Positions 1,576-30,128 of a stretch of 31,377 nt of DNA are shown here, in pieces. Below the pieces are notes generated by a model. The model worked only from the letters and a program-made list of their open reading frames with translations, ran no database searches and was not told the DNA's origin. Source of the DNA: a virus; the UHGV virus genome UHGV-0092341; one strand, 5' to 3'. Position numbers and translations under genes: made by a program. Within the stretch, counting starts at the first letter, position 1; every line of letters begins with the position of its first letter.

Positions 1576-2742
1576 TTAAACCCCTTTGACAACGTCAGCA
1601 TTGACCTGTGGAACCCCGATTTCAGCGGCCAGATTCATGGCGGCTATCACCAGGTTACTGACGGCCAGCGGATACAGCAGGCTGACCATATTTTTACGAT
1701 GACTTCCCGGATTGCTCAGGCGGGCACGTATGGCATCCACTGCGCTGGCGTCCATAATGTCCGTCAGTTGTTTACCGGCCCGTTGCAGTTTGAACGTCAG
1801 AAATTCTTCAAGGTTATTGTCCAGAGGCAGAAGTTCGACCACCTCACAGCGCTGAACGACTTCACGGACTTCCATATTGCGTTCAGACAGTTTTGTCGCC
1901 AGTTCCGGCTGGCCAATCAGCACGATGGACAGCAGTTTTTTGAAACCGGACTCCAGCTCAAAAAAGCGTTTGAGGTGTTTCAGTGTCGGAATGGGCAGAC
2001 TGTGGGCCTCCTCAATCACCAAAACGTGGCTGAACCCCGCCTGGCTGCTGTCTTTCAGGACGCGATGCAACTGGCGAAAACGGGCGTCCTGACTGCGTCT
2101 GATGCTTTCCAGTGGTGCGATGGTACTGATAATGGCTTCGGCAATCGCTGCTGCCTTCAGGGTTTTCCCTTTCACATCGTTGTCTTCCATAGCGATGATG
2201 TATGGCTCGATAACAATTACCGGCGCATTCTCGCGGTTGATACGTTCAGTCAGGTCGCGGCGCAGCGTGGATTTACCCGCACCGGACTCACCGATGACGG
2301 CCATAAACCCACCATGACGGGCTGTCTGGTACAGCGCCTCACGCACGTAGCGAATGTCCGGGGTGGTGAACACATCATCAGAACCCTGCATGGCTTCGTC
2401 GGCGAACGGGTCACGGAAAAGACCAAACGCTTTTTTGGTTGCTGGAAATAACACCTGTTTTTTGAGTAACATATTCTCTTCCTCACTGAGGCTCGTTTTA
2501 TCTGTGGTACCCGCTGTACGGGGCGTGGCCGCGCCCTGTACAGCATCAAAACTCTTCGTTGTATCAATCCCCTGACTTTCCAGCCAGGACGCAAGACGCC
2601 GGCGCACTTCTCCAGGGCGGGTGCGGGGCCACGCGTTATGATTCACAATCTGGGCCAGCGTGGCCTCAGAAACATCGACAGCTCTCGCCACCACCGCCTG
2701 TGGGATACGGGCCTCTTTCAGTTGCTGCTTCAGTACCAGCAT
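1576..2742 (-). CDS. AAA+ ATPase, transposition target-DNA activator (MuB-like)
   Basis: Walker A GESGAGKST and Walker B HVLVIEEAH; directly downstream of transposase. I place the start at ATG 2742-2740 (SD GGAGG, 5-nt spacer, 10 nt after A stop) rather than the track's GTG at 2781. Confidence 0.8.
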   Translation of the reverse strand: MLVLKQQLKEARIPQAVVARAVDVSEATLAQIVNHNAWPRTRPGEVRRRLASWLESQGIDTTKSFDAVQGAATPRTAGTTDKTSLSEEENMLLKKQVLFPATKKAFGLFRDPFADEAMQGSDDVFTTPDIRYVREALYQTARHGGFMAVIGESGAGKSTLRRDLTERINRENAPVIVIEPYIIAMEDNDVKGKTLKAAAIAEAIISTIAPLESIRRSQDARFRQLHRVLKDSSQAGFSHVLVIEEAHSLPIPTLKHLKRFFELESGFKKLLSIVLIGQPELATKLSERNMEVREVVQRCEVVELLPLDNNLEEFLTFKLQRAGKQLTDIMDASAVDAIRARLSNPGSHRKNMVSLLYPLAVSNLVIAAMNLAAEIGVPQVNADVVKGV

Positions 2743-2752
2743 GTTTTCCTCC

Positions 2753-4522
2753 TCAGTTGCCGTTAACAATGCTGATAACACTGCTGCGGACCGGCGTGGT
2801 CAGCGTGGCCATGACTTCATCCAGTGCGGCTTCCGGTACGCCGTCCGGGTACTGTGCCGTTAACTGGCGGTAATGTTCCGGCGTCCAGGTAAGGCCGTCG
2901 GCGCTGAACTTATCGCGCAGGGCTTTCGCGGCCTCCACATGAGTCATGGGACGTTGTTCAGTGCGCGGCCCGCGTACGTCAGAGGCCTGACCACGCTTCG
3001 GCATATAGGCCGGAAGTGTGGCGTCATCAATATGTTTATACGGGTCAAGCCGCCCGCCGAACGGCAGCGCCTTCGCCTTGCGTGCGGCGGCTGCATCTGC
3101 GGCGTTGTCTGTACCGGTAACCAGCGCTTCGGTTTCTTTTGCCGCCATCTGTGCCGGGGTTTCCGGCAGGGCTTTGTAACTTTCGCCAAATACCGCCGCG
3201 CCTTCAGCAAAGCCAAACTCGTTCTTTCTGACCTCTTCGACCAGGAAGAACGTCTCGTGGCCGTCCTCACCGGTCAGAACCACCTGTGCCACATCGCTGC
3301 GCCATGGGTTACGGGTAATCATCAGTTTTTCACCAACCAGTACGCCCGGTACCGTTGATACGTCAAATTCAGTGCCCCGGAACGAGACACGAAGTTTTGG
3401 CGTGACTTTGCGGAGTTCTGGTGTCGCCACAGCCAGTTCACGGCATACCTCAACGGAAGGCGCTTTTTTCAGCTGCTCAGCAGTAATCTTCAGCCAGATA
3501 TCCGTGCGGGTTTTACCGTGGCGGCTGTGAACAGCCGTGGCGTTAAAGTGGCTGCGCCATTTCGCGGCCAGCGCGTTGAGTTCTTCCAGACTGTGAACCG
3601 GCCGGAACTTCAGACCCGGCTCCAGCTTGCGTTCGATAATGTCACGCGCCTTTTCCACCTGTCCGGTGGCGCGGGCGTTATGCGGCTTGTGTGCTATCAG
3701 GTCGATGCCCAGTGAGCGGCACATGTTTTTCGTCATACCCGCGGTGTTTGCCGAGCCGGGGTCGAGATAGAGTATTTTCGGCACGCCGTGCAGCACGTCT
3801 GCGCCGCCACGCTCCTGCATGGCGTTGATAAGCACAGAACACAGGTTCTCACCGGATTCCGCACCCGTCACATACTCAACGTAAATCCAGCCGCTGGCAT
3901 GGTCGGTAATCTCGTAACTCCACACGCGGTCACTGGCGATACGGGCAAGGTTAGCGGGCTTGTTCTTGTAGAACTTCGCGCTGTCCATCACCTGCAGTCC
4001 TTTGTGTCCATTACTCAGGTAGTAAAGCGTGCAGAGCGAGGCATCAATCTGCCAGACATGATTGGGATGCAGACTGGCCACTTCAGTATGTGGTGCAGGG
4101 GCATCCAGTTGTTCCGGGTGCAGGCCATAGTTACGCAGGGCTCGGCTGATGGCATCTTCGGACAACGGGAAAAACTCACCGGTGGTTTCATCTGTTCTGC
4201 CTGCGGAGATAAAGCCGTTAGCCCGCAGGGTTTCCACTGCATCCGCGATGGAATAGAGACGCTTACCGTTCTTGCGGGTGGCCTCACGCAGTGTGGCAGA
4301 TATCAGCGCGGCTTCGTCGCGGGTCAGGGCGCTGCGCCCGGCATCGGCGCGTTTTTTGCGTTTATCAGTCACAGAGACCTCCTTCAGCCTGCGCAGCAGA
4401 GTGGCGCGGGACATGCCAAGTTCAGCACAGGCAGCGTCGTATACTGCACCGCGTTTACCATGCCCCGCATTACGTGCCGCGCGGGCTGTTTCAACCAGTT
4501 TTTCAGTCAGTGCCGGGGTCAT
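2753..4522 (-). CDS. DDE transposase (MuA-like, rve/integrase core)
   Basis: 589 aa; HVWQIDAS-type first catalytic Asp region; N-terminal HTH-like segment; paired with B ATPase downstream; SD AGGGAAG upstream. Confidence 0.85.
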   Translation of the reverse strand: MTPALTEKLVETARAARNAGHGKRGAVYDAACAELGMSRATLLRRLKEVSVTDKRKKRADAGRSALTRDEAALISATLREATRKNGKRLYSIADAVETLRANGFISAGRTDETTGEFFPLSEDAISRALRNYGLHPEQLDAPAPHTEVASLHPNHVWQIDASLCTLYYLSNGHKGLQVMDSAKFYKNKPANLARIASDRVWSYEITDHASGWIYVEYVTGAESGENLCSVLINAMQERGGADVLHGVPKILYLDPGSANTAGMTKNMCRSLGIDLIAHKPHNARATGQVEKARDIIERKLEPGLKFRPVHSLEELNALAAKWRSHFNATAVHSRHGKTRTDIWLKITAEQLKKAPSVEVCRELAVATPELRKVTPKLRVSFRGTEFDVSTVPGVLVGEKLMITRNPWRSDVAQVVLTGEDGHETFFLVEEVRKNEFGFAEGAAVFGESYKALPETPAQMAAKETEALVTGTDNAADAAAARKAKALPFGGRLDPYKHIDDATLPAYMPKRGQASDVRGPRTEQRPMTHVEAAKALRDKFSADGLTWTPEHYRQLTAQYPDGVPEAALDEVMATLTTPVRSSVISIVNGN

Positions 4523-4537
4523 AGCTTGTCTTCCCTG

Positions 4538-4855
4538 TTATCCGATTCTGGCGGCAATTTTTCTGGCGAGGTCGCACAGTGTTTCGCCATCGCAGGCTTT
4601 CACCACGGTATTTACCGGTTGCGGTACAGCTACCGGGCGCAATGCTGACTGAGACTGCAGGCGTCTTATCTGCTGCATCAGCATCTCCTCCATCGTCAGT
4701 ACAAACGGGTGCGCCTCCTGTGCGGGTACGCAGATTTCACCGGAAGGGGTTACCACGCGGAAACCCTGCACCATTTCCGGCACCAGATTACACAGTGCGT
4801 GCCCCAGTGCCTCAGGGCTGTCCATCAGGATATTTTGTGTGTTATTCGTATTCAT
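4538..4855 (-). CDS. hypothetical early protein (105 aa)
   Basis: ORF in track; ATG overlaps stop of upstream 305-aa gene (coupling); 15 nt upstream of transposase. Confidence 0.5.
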   Translation of the reverse strand: MNTNNTQNILMDSPEALGHALCNLVPEMVQGFRVVTPSGEICVPAQEAHPFVLTMEEMLMQQIRRLQSQSALRPVAVPQPVNTVVKACDGETLCDLARKIAARIG

Positions 4856-5772
4856 TACTGCATATCCTCCGGTCGGTTGATTTCAGGTTCCGGTTCGGTC
4901 AGCCAGGCGGGGACATCGTTACCCGATGGTGCGGCATCAAGGTCAAACGTCTCACGCAATGCATGAACACTGCGTTCAATCTGACAGACCAGACCGGCCA
5001 TGAAATCTCTGGGGGTATCAATCATGTTTTTACTGCAGTATTCACACAGGGTTTCAAAGGCACCGGACAGCCGGACGGCAACAGCAGATTCCGCTTCAAC
5101 CGCTAATGCCGTCACTTCCGCCCGCAGCTTCTTCATCTCTTCATCAGGCTCAGGCGGCTGAATACGGGATTTCTTCTCCAGTCTGGTGGAGAGTGAATCT
5201 ATTTTTTCATTTTTGTCGGCAAGTACGCGCTGTTGTGCTGCGTTGGTTTCACGCGCTTCGCGCAGAGCCTGACGGAGTTCACGTACTGACATGCGATCAA
5301 CGTCGTCAAGCGTCAGGCCGGCAACTGTGCCGCCGTCGGCCAGTTCGGCAAGGTCTTCGTCATCTTCAGCAACAAGTTCAAATAATTTTGCCTTACCTAA
5401 AAGCGACAACGTTGTCGCTTTTGGCTCTAGTTTTGGTGAAAGGTATTTCAAAGATGCTTTCATCATTCGTTGTGCTGCGCGCACATGCAGACCAAGTTGT
5501 TCTTCTACAATTCCAACAAAGTCCCCGTGTGGTTCATTTTCTTTGAGAATAATAAGCCGTTTACCTGCCTCCAGCATGGCCTCAGCGCTCTGTGCCATAT
5601 AAAACCGAGCCTCATGAACTATGCGATCTCGCTCATAGGGCTGACCATCGCCAAACTGCTGCATGATCTCCATGCGATGCTGTGTCATGGCGTTCAGACT
5701 GACATTGAGATCATCCGACAGAGGCTCCTCGGCGTTCAGTTCAGTGTTAACGGGGGATTTGGTGCGTCCCAT
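4855..5772 (-). CDS. hypothetical early protein (305 aa), acidic with coiled-coil-like centre
   Basis: Strong SD AAGGAG 6 nt upstream of ATG at 5772; no catalytic motif recognised. Confidence 0.55.
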   Translation of the reverse strand: MGRTKSPVNTELNAEEPLSDDLNVSLNAMTQHRMEIMQQFGDGQPYERDRIVHEARFYMAQSAEAMLEAGKRLIILKENEPHGDFVGIVEEQLGLHVRAAQRMMKASLKYLSPKLEPKATTLSLLGKAKLFELVAEDDEDLAELADGGTVAGLTLDDVDRMSVRELRQALREARETNAAQQRVLADKNEKIDSLSTRLEKKSRIQPPEPDEEMKKLRAEVTALAVEAESAVAVRLSGAFETLCEYCSKNMIDTPRDFMAGLVCQIERSVHALRETFDLDAAPSGNDVPAWLTEPEPEINRPEDMQ

Positions 5773-5782
5773 TGATTACTCC

Positions 5783-6091
5783 TTACAAACGACTACCTGA
5801 AATAACACGTTGGTTGATTTCGTTAATGCGATCCTGTGCACGTGCCATCTCGTTACTGTGGGCCATGGCGATCTGCAGTAACTGGATGCCCGGCGCGAAA
5901 CGCCCGTTTTCCAGTTTCAGAGCCAGCCCTTCTTCGATGAGGGTGTTGAGTGCCCGGTTGATGTTTGCCGGTGACTCGTGCAGTGCTGCCGCCAGTTCAC
6001 CGTTAGAAATACCATTCAGGGCATGACCGCGCAGCGCTTTGAGTACCCGGAGGATGCGACTGCCGGAGCTTGAAACATTCGTCTTACTCAT
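5783..6091 (-). CDS. winged-helix/HTH DNA-binding protein (second early regulator)
   Basis: HTH-like RILRVLKAL...ISNGELAAAL...INRALNTLIEEGL. I prefer ATG at 6091 (SD AAGAGG, 7-nt spacer) over track start 6097. Confidence 0.5.
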   Translation of the reverse strand: MSKTNVSSSGSRILRVLKALRGHALNGISNGELAAALHESPANINRALNTLIEEGLALKLENGRFAPGIQLLQIAMAHSNEMARAQDRINEINQRVISGSRL

Positions 6092-6143
6092 CTGCATACC
6101 TCTTTTGCGATATGTGATAACCTTTTACAAAGACTCAAAATCT

Positions 6144-6332
6144 TCAGGCTGCCTGAGCTGTTGATTTCAGCCCCAGTTTCACGGCGATTTCATGGGATTT
6201 ACCGTAACGGGCTTTGGTCTGCCCGTTGAGAACGCGGTATACCTCATTGCGGTTGTAGCCGTTTTCTTCTGCCCAGCGGGTGAACGTGATCCCGCGCTGG
6301 CGAAAGAGGGCTTTGACTTGTTCTGCAGTCAT
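6144..6332 (-). CDS. Ner/Cro-like small DNA-binding protein, first early gene
   Basis: 62 aa; strong SD AAGGAG; first gene of leftward operon, divergent from repressor as in Mu c/ner. Confidence 0.6.
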   Translation of the reverse strand: MTAEQVKALFRQRGITFTRWAEENGYNRNEVYRVLNGQTKARYGKSHEIAVKLGLKSTAQAA

Positions 6333-6432
6333 CGTTGTCTCCTTTGTTGATGCAATGATGTTTGCCTTATGTGTGATAGATTATGGTGCAGATTACCTCA
6401 CCAGTCAACTTAAAGAGTGCAGAAAAACTCAC
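6333..6432. promoter_or_regulatory. divergent early/repressor control region (promoters and operators expected)
   Basis: 100-bp AT-rich gap between divergent starts of Ner-like gene (6332) and repressor (6433); operators not mapped. Confidence 0.4.
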
Positions 6433-6771
6433 ATGATCGGGTTACGTATTAAAGAAGAAAGAGAGCGTCTATCTCTTACACAGCAAGGGTTGGCTGATGC
6501 TATAGGTGTGGCAAAGAGAACTTTCATTGATTGGGAAAAAGATCGCACTTCTCCTACTGCAGTGCAGTTATCTGCACTATCAGAAATCGGTGTAGATATT
6601 TTGTATGTAGTTACTGGGGTGCGGAGTCAGCCTGTTGTTGCACCGTATGTGTCACAAGAAAAGAAAGAGTTAATGGATGCATTCGACGAAATGAGCCCCG
6701 AACAACGGAGGGCAATTCTTGAGGTCGGCAAAGTCTTCATTCAACCAAAACCGAGCAAACTCGCAGGCTGA
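6433..6771 (+). CDS. XRE-family HTH repressor (c-repressor analogue)
   Basis: HTH LSLTQQGLADAIGVAKRTFIDWEKDRTSP. Start taken at ATG 6433 because the track's 6280 start would overlap the Ner-like gene. Confidence 0.65.
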   Translation: MIGLRIKEERERLSLTQQGLADAIGVAKRTFIDWEKDRTSPTAVQLSALSEIGVDILYVVTGVRSQPVVAPYVSQEKKELMDAFDEMSPEQRRAILEVGKVFIQPKPSKLAG

Positions 6772-6887: not shown

Positions 6888-7652
6888 TCAGAAGTTGCAG
6901 ATTACCAGTTCACGGCGCGGCGTGGGTTTCCCCGCCAGACTGTAGTTGATATTCACCGTCTGTATGTTCAGTTCAGTGAACACCCGACGCATCTGCGGAA
7001 TGTCGTTCACCGAGATAATCATCTTTCCTCTGATGCACCGGGCCAGTTCTGCGAGTAGTGTGTAGTTCTCTTCAGGAAAATCCACACCATAGCCTTCCGT
7101 CCCCAGATAGGGCGGATCACAGTAGAACAGCGTGTGCGGACGGTCATAACGCTTAATGCACTGGTGCCAGTCCATGTGTTCTATCACCGTTCTGGAAAGC
7201 CGCAGGTGTGCCGCTGACAGTTCTTCTTCAATACGTAGCAGATTGAAGCGTGGCGGAGATGTGGTGGAGGTGCCGAAGCTGTGCCCTGCCACCTTGCCAC
7301 CAAATGCCTGCTTCTGGAGGTAGTAGAACCGTGCCGCACGCTGGATATCCGTCAGTGTTTCTTCCGGGGTGATCTGCAGCCATTTGTAGATCTGCCGGCT
7401 GACCAGCGCCCATTTGAACTGGCGGATAAATTCTTCCAGGTGATGTTTTACCACCCGGTACAGATTCACCAGTTCACCATTGATATCGTTAATGACTTCG
7501 AGCTTGCCGGGAGTCTTGAGAAAATAGAGCGCAGCTGCGCCGCAGAACGGCTCCACATAACATTCATGCGCAGGAAACAGCGGCAGGATGTGTTTTCCCA
7601 GGCGGCGTTTGCCACCAATCCATGGAACGATGGGTAATGTCTGCGTTTTCAT
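6888..7652 (-). CDS. Dam-like N6-adenine DNA methyltransferase (D12 class), orphan
   Basis: 254 aa; motif I FCGAAA near N-terminus and motif IV DPPY (FYCDPPYLG) near C-terminus; no adjacent restriction-enzyme-like gene. Confidence 0.8.
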   Translation of the reverse strand: MKTQTLPIVPWIGGKRRLGKHILPLFPAHECYVEPFCGAAALYFLKTPGKLEVINDINGELVNLYRVVKHHLEEFIRQFKWALVSRQIYKWLQITPEETLTDIQRAARFYYLQKQAFGGKVAGHSFGTSTTSPPRFNLLRIEEELSAAHLRLSRTVIEHMDWHQCIKRYDRPHTLFYCDPPYLGTEGYGVDFPEENYTLLAELARCIRGKMIISVNDIPQMRRVFTELNIQTVNINYSLAGKPTPRRELVICNF

Positions 7653-29034: not shown

Positions 29035-30128
29035 CAGAACCCGATTTTATTGAACGTGATGCCGACAAAATCACGGCTGAAATGATTGCACAGTACGAAG
29101 CCGCAACCGGCAAAACGCTGTACCCCGCTCAGGCTGAGCGCCTGTTGATTGACCTGTGGGCATACCGCGAAATGCTGGTCAGGGTAGCGGCGCAGGAAAT
29201 AGCCAAACAGAATCTGGTCGCCTTTGCCCGTGAGCCGATGATTGATTACCTCGGTGAACTGGTCGGTGTTTACCGCCTTGCCGCGCAGCCTGCCACCACC
29301 ACGCTCCAGTTCTCCGTGGATGAGGCACTGGCCATTGACGTGCTGATTCCGGCGGGTACCCGCGTCAGCGCTTCCGACAGCGTTATTTTTGCCACCGATA
29401 CAGATGTGGTACTGAAGGCCGGATTGCTGCTGGTCAATGTCACGGCCACCTGTACCGAACCCGGTACCGCTGGTAACGGCTGGCAACCTGCGCAGGTCAG
29501 TCAGTTACTCGATGAGATTGATAACGTCGACCTGCTGGTGAGCAATCTGACGGCCAGTTCCGGCGGTTCAGAACAGGAAGACGATGACAGGCTCCGGGAG
29601 CGTATCAGACTGGCCCCGGAGTCATTCACCAATGCCGGAAGCCGTGGCGCATACCGCTTTCATGCCATGCAGGCCCATCCCAACATTGTCGATGTTGCTG
29701 TGCTTTCCCCGGTTCCCGGCACCGTAGATCTGTATCCGCTGCTCAGTACCGGTCTGCCGGACGGCGGTGTTCTCACGCTGGTAGAGAGTTTCTGCTCTGA
29801 TGAGAAAGTCAGGCCGCTCACTGATACCGTGCGGGCTAAAACACCTGTGCAGGTGGATTATGCCATTGAAGCCAGGATTACGATCTATCGTGATCAGGAT
29901 GCCGGGTCTGTAAAAGATGCCGCCAACAGTGCCATCCAGAACTGGGTGGCATCACGTGCCGCCACGCTGGGGCGCGATATTGTCCCCAGCCAGATTATCA
30001 GTGCATTGTCCGTTTCCGGGGTGTACCAGGTTGAGCTGGTGACACCGGCACTGCGGGTGGTGGCAGAAAACGAATGGGCAAACTGTACGGCGATCACACT
30101 TAACATGACCAGGGTGTCCGATGGCTGA
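29025..30128 (+). CDS. baseplate protein J-like (P2 gpJ / Mu gp47-like)
   Basis: 367 aa directly after GPW-like gene; conserved W-J-I order. Confidence 0.7.
   Translation: MALTEPDFIERDADKITAEMIAQYEAATGKTLYPAQAERLLIDLWAYREMLVRVAAQEIAKQNLVAFAREPMIDYLGELVGVYRLAAQPATTTLQFSVDEALAIDVLIPAGTRVSASDSVIFATDTDVVLKAGLLLVNVTATCTEPGTAGNGWQPAQVSQLLDEIDNVDLLVSNLTASSGGSEQEDDDRLRERIRLAPESFTNAGSRGAYRFHAMQAHPNIVDVAVLSPVPGTVDLYPLLSTGLPDGGVLTLVESFCSDEKVRPLTDTVRAKTPVQVDYAIEARITIYRDQDAGSVKDAANSAIQNWVASRAATLGRDIVPSQIISALSVSGVYQVELVTPALRVVAENEWANCTAITLNMTRVSDG

Follow-up and report, generated by a model that had tools for sequence, protein, structure and literature searches.

A hypervariable cassette with a predicted helix-turn-helix and a covarying intragenic palindrome upstream of the transposase gene of a BcepMu-type prophage

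Introduction

In phage Mu the transposase gene A directly follows ner. In the viral genome UHGV-0092341, whose entire 31,377 nucleotides are referred to here as the window, three co-oriented open reading frames (ORFs) on the minus strand (4538-6097) lie between a Ner-like gene and the transposase gene, which raises the question of what these genes are and what they have to do with transposition. A preliminary description had regarded all three as inserted into a Mu-type layout and had suggested extra early regulators, transposition accessory factors or early anti-host functions. We report that the window represents a BcepMu-type prophage, that two of the three genes belong to the core of its lineage, and that the second gene, which codes for a protein of the DUF3102 family, contains a hypervariable cassette encoding a predicted helix-turn-helix (HTH) together with a palindrome whose two arms covary. 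We propose, with a probability of roughly 45%, that the DUF3102 protein binds DNA sequence-specifically as a dimer and serves transposition as an accessory factor or regulator within a four-gene cassette.

Results

A hypervariable cassette in the DUF3102 gene

The genes and elements needed for the comparison are the following, with wHTH standing for winged helix-turn-helix and lengths given in amino acids (aa):

4855-5772, minus strand: DUF3102 gene (ORF2), 305 aa; phrog_1748 at 3e-140
5368-5520, minus strand: V cassette, codons ~85-135 of the DUF3102 gene, spanning the predicted HTH and the palindrome-coding codons
5399-5422, no strand: perfect 24-bp palindrome without spacer, AAAAGCGACAAC followed directly by GTTGTCGCTTTT, found by repeat search; it encodes residues ~117-125 and is a candidate cognate DNA site
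5783-6097, minus strand: wHTH gene (ORF1), 104 aa, or 102 aa from the ATG at 6091
2753-4522, minus strand: TnpA, Tn552-type DDE (rve) transposase, 589 aa, with Pfam rve alone
1576-2781, minus strand: TnpB, AAA+ (AAA_22) transposition protein, 401 aa; AAA_22 4e-20, phrog_296 8e-94

Between the window and Escherichia phage PhiKM the wHTH, TnpA and TnpB proteins are 99-99.5% identical, but the DUF3102 proteins only 81%, and all of the divergence falls within residues ~85-200. We determined the extent of this variation in 71 enterobacterial viral contigs. Residues 85-135 showed a mean pairwise identity of 60% compared to 77-87% in the adjoining segments, and at least 19 V types could be distinguished among the 71 loci. 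Entropy amounted to 0.05-0.5 bits at residues 41-85 and jumped to 1.0-1.6 bits at residues 86-125. The variable positions are 86, 87, 89, 91, 92, 96, 97, 99, 101, 102, 108, 114 and 116-124; F85, I88, L93, M103, A106, K109 and L125 are fixed, leaving the hydrophobic core around residues 86-102 invariant. This corresponds to the pattern expected of a conserved, here predicted, HTH with a variable recognition surface. The V type was uncorrelated with wHTH, TnpA, TnpB and p89 (rho 0.02-0.12) and independent of the type of the immunity region in a contingency table. A co-variation of the cassette with immunity in E. coli-type phages had been considered on the basis of a signal among close pairs, which vanished in that table.

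The preliminary description of the protein as acidic and coiled-coil was borne out, with an isoelectric point (pI) of 4.8, a net charge of -19 and a long helix at residues 163-200. PF11300 is matched at residues 65-172 with 24.5 bits, marginally above the gathering threshold of 24.4. At E<=0.05, a cutoff that differs from the gathering threshold, PF11300 is also found in 46 of 52 diverse relatives (best 2e-7). The family comprises 1522 clusters at 50% identity. An AlphaFold2 model (pLDDT, the predicted local distance difference test, 77.8) is all-alpha. It starts with an invariant N-terminal helix block, followed by an HTH-like core and a second helical subdomain; a helix of 38 residues then leads to a C-terminal helical hairpin and a conserved P-x-W tail. 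The predicted HTH helices comprise residues 82-92 and 97-110 with the pattern G-x-F ... L-G-L ... R-x-A-Q-x-M-M, and the HTH core itself is neutral. Sequence and profile searches of the PDB came back empty, a Foldseek search of a viral structure library returned other DUF3102 proteins only, PADLOC gave no match and NCBIfam was uninformative.

Three homologues of 526-537 aa (P0197, P0252, P0259) are extended at the N-terminus by ~240 aa in which Cys-rich motifs recur and for which Pfam has no match. Domain fusions were also considered as a clue to function and discarded, since the long N-terminal extensions in P0160, P0197, P0200 and relatives lack a Pfam match. Plasmid-borne DUF3102 genes were dropped as an independent context as well, the matches having proved to be integrated prophages.

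A palindrome that covaries at the same codons

The palindrome within the V cassette extends to 28 bp at 5397-5424 if one mismatch is allowed. In the 31-kb window it is present as a single copy, with no further copies of the palindrome or of its half-site above chance. B3 and BcepMu carry an intragenic palindrome as the window does: perfect palindromes measure 26 bp in B3, 30 bp in BcepMu, 26 bp in phiE255 and 28 bp in Mae-JY22. Among full-length homologues, 111 of 145 showed a palindrome with arms of at least 12 bp at the same codons, compared to 9 of 2900 codon-shuffled genes (0.3%) with one anywhere. The outer CAAAA/TTTTG is invariant, and the inner bases vary by V type while staying complementary.

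Covariation was assessed in 63 distinct sequences, a set selected for pairing, so that the figure of 111/145 versus 0.3% is the unbiased statistic. Double compensatory changes were found at 9 of 13 pairs, doubly changed cells numbered 150 compared to 52.7±5 in shuffles, and the covariation score of 0.467 (shuffles 0.130) was reached in 0 of 500 shuffles. The innermost variable pair switches between G:C and A:T (34 versus 25 sequences, 2 unpaired), including at least five otherwise identical backgrounds. In an RNA hairpin this pair would fall into the loop, and the codons at this position (Thr/Ala, Leu) do not force a coupling. The repeated switches of a central pair at a position that is a loop in RNA therefore indicate that the symmetry is a property of the DNA duplex. 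This favours a dimeric binding protein over an RNA hairpin.

We compared the motif of the predicted recognition helix with the core of the half-site across beta- and gamma-proteobacteria. The two pair consistently even across distant hosts:

Helix motif R.ARRMM: half-site ACGGAC
Helix motif RTARL.M: half-site CGGCAAGC
Helix motif RIAQKM: half-site GCGAAA
Helix motif RAAQRMMK: half-site GCGACA
Helix motif RTAQRMM: half-site GCGCCA
Helix motif YRTSVRMM: half-site TGTGCCA

In some relatives the element is also found elsewhere. The Microcystis phage Mae-JY22 (L092) contains three copies with identical core, centred at 1876, 1921 and 4799, two of which form a tandem with 45-bp spacing that lies outside the DUF3102 gene. 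Locus L056 has two copies, centred at 2405 and 5329, one of which lies in non-coding DNA. In L071 and L078 palindromes are located in the spacer between the wHTH and DUF3102 genes and none inside the gene. A terminator scan flagged the palindrome of the window on the plus (antisense) strand only; on the sense strand it is followed by U4 and then AGG. A search of Rfam gave no match for the element.

Repressor fusions with a matching cassette

A DUF3102 module fused to a complete XRE repressor is encoded at the repressor position, in divergent orientation to the Ner-like gene, by prophages of Arsenophonus, Sodalis, Symbiopectobacterium and 'Ca. Pantoea bathycoeliae' as well as by related viral contigs. 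The fusion genes and the repressor gene of the window are:

L046:1172-2302, L048:3199-4179, L054:3198-4115, L055:3199-4179, all minus strand, and L245-L250: fusion genes
6433-6771, plus strand: cI/XRE-type repressor of the window, 112 aa, divergent; Pfam HTH_3 1.6e-7

The start of the latter is ambiguous (6280-6771), the alternatives being a 163-aa ORF overlapping the Ner-like gene or the 112-aa form. The DUF3102 module of the fusions is 68% identical to residues 36-187 of the window protein, and the XRE repressor of the window can be aligned over its whole length to their C-terminal half.

Comparing each fusion with the DUF3102 gene of the same phage, we found only 0-3 of 153 nt of the V cassette to differ, and this in six out of six V types. 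The codons flanking the cassette differ by 5-15% in five of the six types; in L248/L249 the differences amount to 0/120 and 1/90 nt. Between fusion-bearing phages V shares only 21-81% amino-acid identity. An island of identity that coincides exactly with the most variable segment indicates that the fusion and the DUF3102 protein must share one specificity. The identity may be maintained by gene conversion. In Mu, repressor c and transposase A share an operator/enhancer-binding domain (PMC5977238). Our profile hidden Markov model (HMM) of the MuA N-terminus likewise matched Mu-type repressors.

Association with transposases that lack the MuA N-terminal domain

TnpA shares 68% identity with BcepMu gp09 and 56% with B3 ORF12. 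BLAST gave no match between TnpA and MuA, and none of the MuA Pfam domains was detected in TnpA, while in MuA itself all four were found, including HTH_Tnp_Mu_1, DDE_2 and Mu-transpos_C. phrog_310 aligns to TnpA only from profile position 130 on. As judged from these profiles, TnpA is devoid of the N-terminal DNA-binding domain of MuA.

A second group showed the same combination. In KS10 and eight contigs resembling it, the transposase (541-550 aa) has a MuA core but no Pfam HTH_Tnp_Mu_1, and its alignment to MuA begins only at residue 96. Directly upstream of every KS10-like transposase gene we detected a DUF3102-like gene (hhalign probability 97.3%, E=1.7e-11). A DUF3102 gene was found at 0 of ~58 Mu-like/D3112-like loci whose transposase has HTH_Tnp_Mu_1. 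By domain assignment, DUF3102 thus accompanies transposases without an I-alpha-type domain in two unrelated transposase families.

The wHTH and DUF3102 genes belong to a four-gene core

We analyzed gene order in 77 species-level genome loci from beta- and gamma-proteobacteria, 72 of which had enough flanking sequence. The wHTH gene is located directly upstream of the DUF3102 gene in 68 of these 72, and TnpA follows downstream likewise in 68 of 72. From the DUF3102 stop codon to the start of tnpA the median gap is 3 nt, with space for a gene in only 6 of 68 loci. The order wHTH, DUF3102, TnpA, TnpB is found in BcepMu (gp12, gp10, gp09, gp08) and B3 (ORF14-11), and also in phiE255, JBD18, PM105, KP12, phiSHP3, Bise and Mae-JY22, so that the nine named phages span Burkholderia, Pseudomonas, Stenotrophomonas, Klebsiella and others. 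BcepMu gp12/gp10 and B3 ORF14/ORF13 lie in the same order immediately 5' of a Tn552-type transposase gene and an AAA+ TnpB gene; BcepMu has an additional 70-aa gene (gp11) between gp12 and gp10, whereas the window has the 105-aa gene after DUF3102 instead. The DUF3102 protein matches BcepMu gp10 with a BLAST E of 4e-54 and is assigned as the orthologue of gp10 and B3 ORF13. The wHTH protein, with 57% identity to B3 ORF14 and 34% to BcepMu gp12 (E=1e-14), is assigned as the orthologue of these two. From this synteny the wHTH and DUF3102 genes can be classed as ancestral core genes which form a four-gene cassette with tnpA and tnpB, and not as an insertion. The three-gene layout itself is an ordinary, already sequenced BcepMu/B3-type arrangement, in which the orthologues are annotated merely as 'transcriptional regulator' and 'conserved hypothetical/DUF3102'. 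In the literature searched we found no published function for either gene.

The truly variable stretch of the lineage lies between the Ner-like and wHTH genes: 34 loci have no more than 100 nt here and 25 loci up to 2.4 kb, with B3 ORF15/16 as an example of its contents. Exclusion gene 10 of beetreviruses is located in this stretch (PMC9936078). Unrelated small ORFs occasionally occur at the DUF3102-tnpA junction of Microbulbifer and Rubrivivax prophages (L065 5826-6529, L066 5814-6373, L086 5826-6027).

The wHTH protein is basic (pI 10.7). The winged helix stood up to profile search, with 27.3 bits for Pfam HTH_IclR against a cutoff of 22 (E=3e-6) and phrog_1368 at 9e-45; the originally assumed length of 104 aa is probably 102 aa, since the most likely start is the second ATG at 6091, as in the PhiKM annotation and in the Prokaryotic Genome Annotation Pipeline (PGAP). 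The protein resembles IclR-family regulators in its N-terminal winged HTH, which has the IclR/MarR-type DNA-binding domain. Regulators of this family are ~250 aa long and carry a C-terminal effector-binding domain; the wHTH protein is a stand-alone winged helix with a C-terminal helix, lacks this second domain and is not a member of the IclR family. PADLOC returned generic wHTH matches only.

Phage identity and layout of the early region

Window and PhiKM (a Bcepmuvirus) are 93.7% identical, window and Klebsiella phage KP12 85%. On these comparisons the prophage in the window is classified as BcepMu-type (Bcepmuvirus) and not as Mu-type: a Tn552-type rve transposase gene is followed by an AAA_22 TnpB gene, gp16/gp12/gp10-like genes lie upstream, and the canonical Muvirus feature of a MuA-type transposase directly after ner is absent. 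The Mu-type frame of the preliminary description had to be abandoned. Mu is the wrong reference, because the phage is of BcepMu type with wHTH-DUF3102-TnpA-TnpB order as the rule. As in BcepMu and B3, the early operon is divergent from the late genes (PMC5977238). The remaining two early genes of interest are:

6144-6332, minus strand: gp16-family HTH gene, 62 aa, first gene of the early operon; TIGR04111 97.4 bits against a cutoff of 34
4538-4855, minus strand: 105-aa accessory ORF (ORF3), phrog_5446, located between the DUF3102 gene and tnpA, a slot that is normally empty

The product of the former is 71% identical to B3 ORF17 and showed no similarity to Mu Ner in a BLAST comparison. It is assigned to the BcepMu gp16 family of HTH proteins, as a positional analogue of Ner.

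Tight coupling and Shine-Dalgarno sequences, as proposed at the outset, were found throughout the three ORFs. ORF1 and ORF2 are separated by 10 nt, ORF2 and ORF3 overlap in TAATG, and a further 15 nt separate ORF3 from the transposase gene. Shine-Dalgarno motifs are present 5' of ORF1 (GAGG), 7 nt 5' of ORF2 (AGGAG) and 5' of ORF3 (GGAGG). Each ORF has a full-length PHROG match. Ratios of non-synonymous to synonymous substitution rates (dN/dS) are 0.03-0.07 for ORF1, 0.07-0.23 for ORF2 and 0.3-0.56 for ORF3; purifying selection acts on all three.

Downstream of the transposase gene follow the genes for the 401-aa AAA+ protein, an 89-aa ORF and Gam. The start of TnpB (1576-2781) is ambiguous, giving 401 aa from a GTG overlapping tnpA or 388 aa in other annotations. 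A DNA adenine methylase gene at 6888-7652 on the minus strand, between the immunity region and the lysis genes, is shared with PhiKM and many E. coli copies.

The 105-aa ORF is accessory

KP12, E. coli S22EC and E. coli 510016 lack the 105-aa ORF; in them, 2-3 nt separate the DUF3102 stop codon from the tnpA start. Among 5426 complete E. coli genomes we found the transposase gene in 639 (708 copies) and the 105-aa gene in 410 (414 copies), leaving ~42% of the copies without it; elsewhere the gene is rare. Among 5.8 billion proteins (5.8e9) it forms only 11 clusters, all from E. coli or Salmonella. A scan of species-representative genomes gave no match; an iterated HMM search alone recovered distant homologues of the helix-hairpin-helix core, in 4 of 77 loci and in two different slots, namely the same slot in Xenorhabdus and directly 5' of the wHTH gene in two beta-proteobacterial metagenome-assembled genomes. 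Distant homologues of the core are located at L040/L045 5890-6123, L050 4248-4601, L067 ~4350-4565 and in Ralstonia phage YO107_2 at 29045-29224. The AlphaFold2 model (pLDDT 70.5) had no significant PDB neighbour in Foldseek, PADLOC gave no match, and NCBIfam was uninformative.

Going by this distribution, the 105-aa ORF is classed as a dispensable accessory gene and the only one of the three ORFs that behaves as an insertion. Judging by the variable early genes known from transposable phages of Pseudomonas, an action on the host or on competitors may be conjectured. The closest analogy is with D3112 orf3-5 and beetrevirus gene 10, which are likewise small, patchy genes between a Ner-like gene and the transposase gene; they show no sequence similarity to the 105-aa ORF, which differs in its location in the normally closed DUF3102-tnpA junction.

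The claim of an insertion therefore stands for one gene of three. Profile and structure searches, as suggested in the preliminary description, identified HTH_IclR, PF11300 and the PHROG families and yielded no significant PDB fold for the DUF3102 or the 105-aa protein. The proposed survey of relatives found the wHTH and DUF3102 genes universal in the lineage and the 105-aa ORF in 414 of 708 E. coli copies. Conserved early functions in all relatives had been named as the outcome that would speak against the insertion, and through their conservation two of the three genes largely correspond to it. Among the suggested functions, early regulators or transposition accessory factors are the favoured reading for the conserved pair, and an anti-host function is plausible for the 105-aa gene only.

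Discussion

A proposed module for transposition control

From gene conservation, the behaviour of the V cassette, palindrome covariation and the repressor fusions we infer DNA binding, the identity of the binder and an effect on transposition. The locus would constitute the front half of an early, transposition-related operon of a BcepMu-type transposable prophage. A predicted HTH (residues ~82-110) would be placed in an exchangeable cassette, with a co-varying dyad site of 24-30 bp encoded a few codons downstream; since the same cassette encodes both, the specificity of the protein and its DNA target would travel together. That the DUF3102 protein binds the palindrome is probable. Bound at this candidate site, ~0.9 kb from the operator region and directly 5' of tnpA, the protein would influence the transposition machinery by way of its coiled coil and C-terminal domain. 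The most likely role would be that of a trans-acting counterpart of the enhancer-binding domain I-alpha of MuA, aiding transpososome assembly or control; alternatively the protein could serve as a roadblock or autoregulator of tnpA-tnpB expression. The basic wHTH protein, an obligate neighbour, is probably a partner DNA-binding protein. An outright positive transposition factor is somewhat doubtful, and we consider a purely regulatory DUF3102 protein unlikely.

Resemblance to the enhancer system of Mu consists in an internal cis site near the immunity region combined with a dedicated, here predicted, DNA-binding module, in a module presence that is complementary to MuA I-alpha, and in a prophage repressor carrying the same module, the latter restricted here to the symbiont-prophage sublineage (six types) and not found in the window. 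The systems differ in that the module is a separate acidic 305-aa protein instead of a transposase domain, without sequence similarity to I-alpha, and in that the site is hypervariable and located inside the gene of the protein itself. Such an arrangement is known from B. subtilis spo0J, where an HTH protein of the ParB/Spo0J type has a parS site inside its own gene. The likeness lies in a predicted HTH protein with a candidate palindromic target in its own coding sequence. As differences, the window system has neither a ParB N-terminal/CTPase domain nor a ParA partner and is part of a transposition operon, not of partition. Membership in the ParB/Spo0J-parS system was considered and rejected, with no ParB Pfam domain and a fold match that is not significant: among the leading Foldseek hits only Spo0J-parS (4umk) represents a DNA-binding complex, with a weak match (template modelling score 0.42, E=3.1, probability 0.28).

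We further put forward, as a speculation that is more probably wrong than right, that the DUF3102 cassette is a self-contained, exchangeable specificity module. In it ~120-150 bp would encode an HTH surface together with its own dyad target, supplying an enhancer system where the transposase lacks I-alpha and defining a transposition-level incompatibility or immunity type independent of repressor immunity, which some prophages would exploit through repressor fusion.

Several observations weigh against an enhancer-like DNA-binding role of the DUF3102 protein. The family is uniformly acidic (pI 4.6-5.95, median 5.0), which is unusual for a DNA binder, and no sequence or structural match to a characterised DNA-binding protein was obtained, the best Foldseek hit in the PDB having E=1.2. 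Helix and palindrome lie within ~20 codons of each other, so their correlation could reflect linkage or cassette ancestry. The anticorrelation of DUF3102 with MuA domain I-alpha rests on 3-4 independent lineages only; a 654-aa MuA-core transposase (L161:3117-5081) with neither the Mu N-terminal domain nor an upstream DUF3102 gene is the one exception, and the idea of the wHTH protein as a split-off I-alpha domain was rejected for want of BLAST similarity to the N-termini of MuA or D3112 A. The repressor of the window, as of other E. coli types, is a plain XRE protein without a DUF3102 module. Because these repressors lack the module and the V type is independent of the immunity type, a Mu-like coupling to immunity is not general. 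The palindrome also has the A4-stem-T4 form of a bidirectional terminator (fold -16.8 kcal/mol, z=-4.05). Finally, tandem CAAA...TTTG palindromes in intergenic early regions of more distant relatives differ in their inner bases (L064 2718/2765, L071 4853/4896, L080 3999/4037) and fit hairpins better than operators of one specificity.

Alternative explanations

These last two points feature in an alternative in which the palindrome is an RNA element, a partial intrinsic terminator or attenuator or a processing hairpin throttling tnpA-tnpB, with codon hypervariability as a by-product of compensatory stem evolution and recombination. The build of A-tract, stem and T-tract, its folding energy and the terminator-like signal on the plus strand suit this explanation, as do stems that vary between invariant A and T tracts, tandem copies with different stems and the intergenic position of the element in some phages, just 5' of the DUF3102 gene or of Ner. 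It is nevertheless quite unlikely in our view. Dyad symmetry runs through the four central bases, which are unpaired in RNA and yet show repeated compensatory switches; the sense strand ends in U4 only, variable pairs lack an enrichment of G:U, and Rfam has no match. Moreover, identical copies are dispersed in Mae-JY22 and L056, the varying residues form the predicted HTH recognition surface up to 30 codons from the hairpin, and in the fusions the nucleotide-identical cassette belongs to another transcript, on the opposite strand. A further alternative is that V is a surface for protein-protein specificity (homotypic oligomerisation or partner binding), in which case the palindrome would be bound by the wHTH protein or a host factor and the matching of the fusions would reflect hetero-oligomerisation of repressor and DUF3102 protein. 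The acidity of the family would be accounted for, the outer CAAAA/TTTTG, the site centre and the wHTH protein are all conserved, and the fusion proteins retain part of the coiled coil. We judge this very unlikely, since the inner half-site varies while phages of different V types remain 94-99% identical in wHTH, TnpA and TnpB, since KS10-like phages lack a wHTH gene despite carrying DUF3102-like genes and similar palindromes, and since the pairing of helix motif and half-site is consistent.

Another alternative is a role of the wHTH and DUF3102 proteins as early transcriptional regulators without a direct part in transpososome assembly, with the palindrome as their operator. Such regulators could set lysis-lysogeny timing, auto-repress or roadblock the early operon, or add a second layer of immunity or incompatibility. 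Both proteins have HTH-type folds as predicted from profiles and models, and their genes come immediately after the Ner-like gene in the early operon, which in beetreviruses is transcribed on induction (PMC9936078). A dimer bound at the site within the operon 5' of tnpA would block elongation, and the fusions are equally explained by a repressor gaining a second operator-binding module for looping or roadblock. We hold this explanation to be unlikely as well: it gives no account of why the pair remains next to tnpA with two unrelated families of transposase when the rest of the early genes turn over, it leaves the anticorrelation with MuA domain I-alpha unexplained, and the V type is independent of the immunity type. 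The original notion of a Mu-like early operon into which one lineage has taken up all three genes, as additional regulators or anti-host functions, can claim their absence from Mu, the three ORFs between ner and the transposase gene in D3112, the insertion-like behaviour of the 105-aa ORF and the variable genes at this position in beetreviruses, which include a superinfection-exclusion activity (PMC9936078). It is hardly tenable: two of the three genes occur throughout the lineage and are strongly constrained by purifying selection, the phage is not of Mu type, and neither the 305-aa nor the 105-aa protein gave a PADLOC or anti-defence match.

Significance

BcepMu/B3-type prophages are common, being present in 639 of 5426 complete E. 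coli genomes as well as in Burkholderia, Pseudomonas, Pectobacterium, Photorhabdus and insect symbionts. To our knowledge, all mechanistic knowledge of transposable-phage transposition comes from Mu, whose transposase has its own enhancer-binding domain. We found no prior description of the hypervariable HTH cassette, the intragenic covarying palindrome or the cassette-matched repressor fusions, and taken together these provide a specific, testable hypothesis for transposition control in a large phage group. Even if the role of the DUF3102 protein were regulatory only, a covarying palindrome constrains nine codons of a conserved protein and has been missed by annotation pipelines. If an enhancer function is indeed supplied in trans, the DUF3102 protein would be a concrete component for reconstituting transposition in BcepMu/B3-type phages and would give a reason why the wHTH and DUF3102 genes are inseparable from tnpA. 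The cassette would then represent a rare case of DNA-binding specificity and target being co-encoded in one recombining unit, and the repressor fusions of the symbiont prophages would be rationalised as a second layer of immunity.

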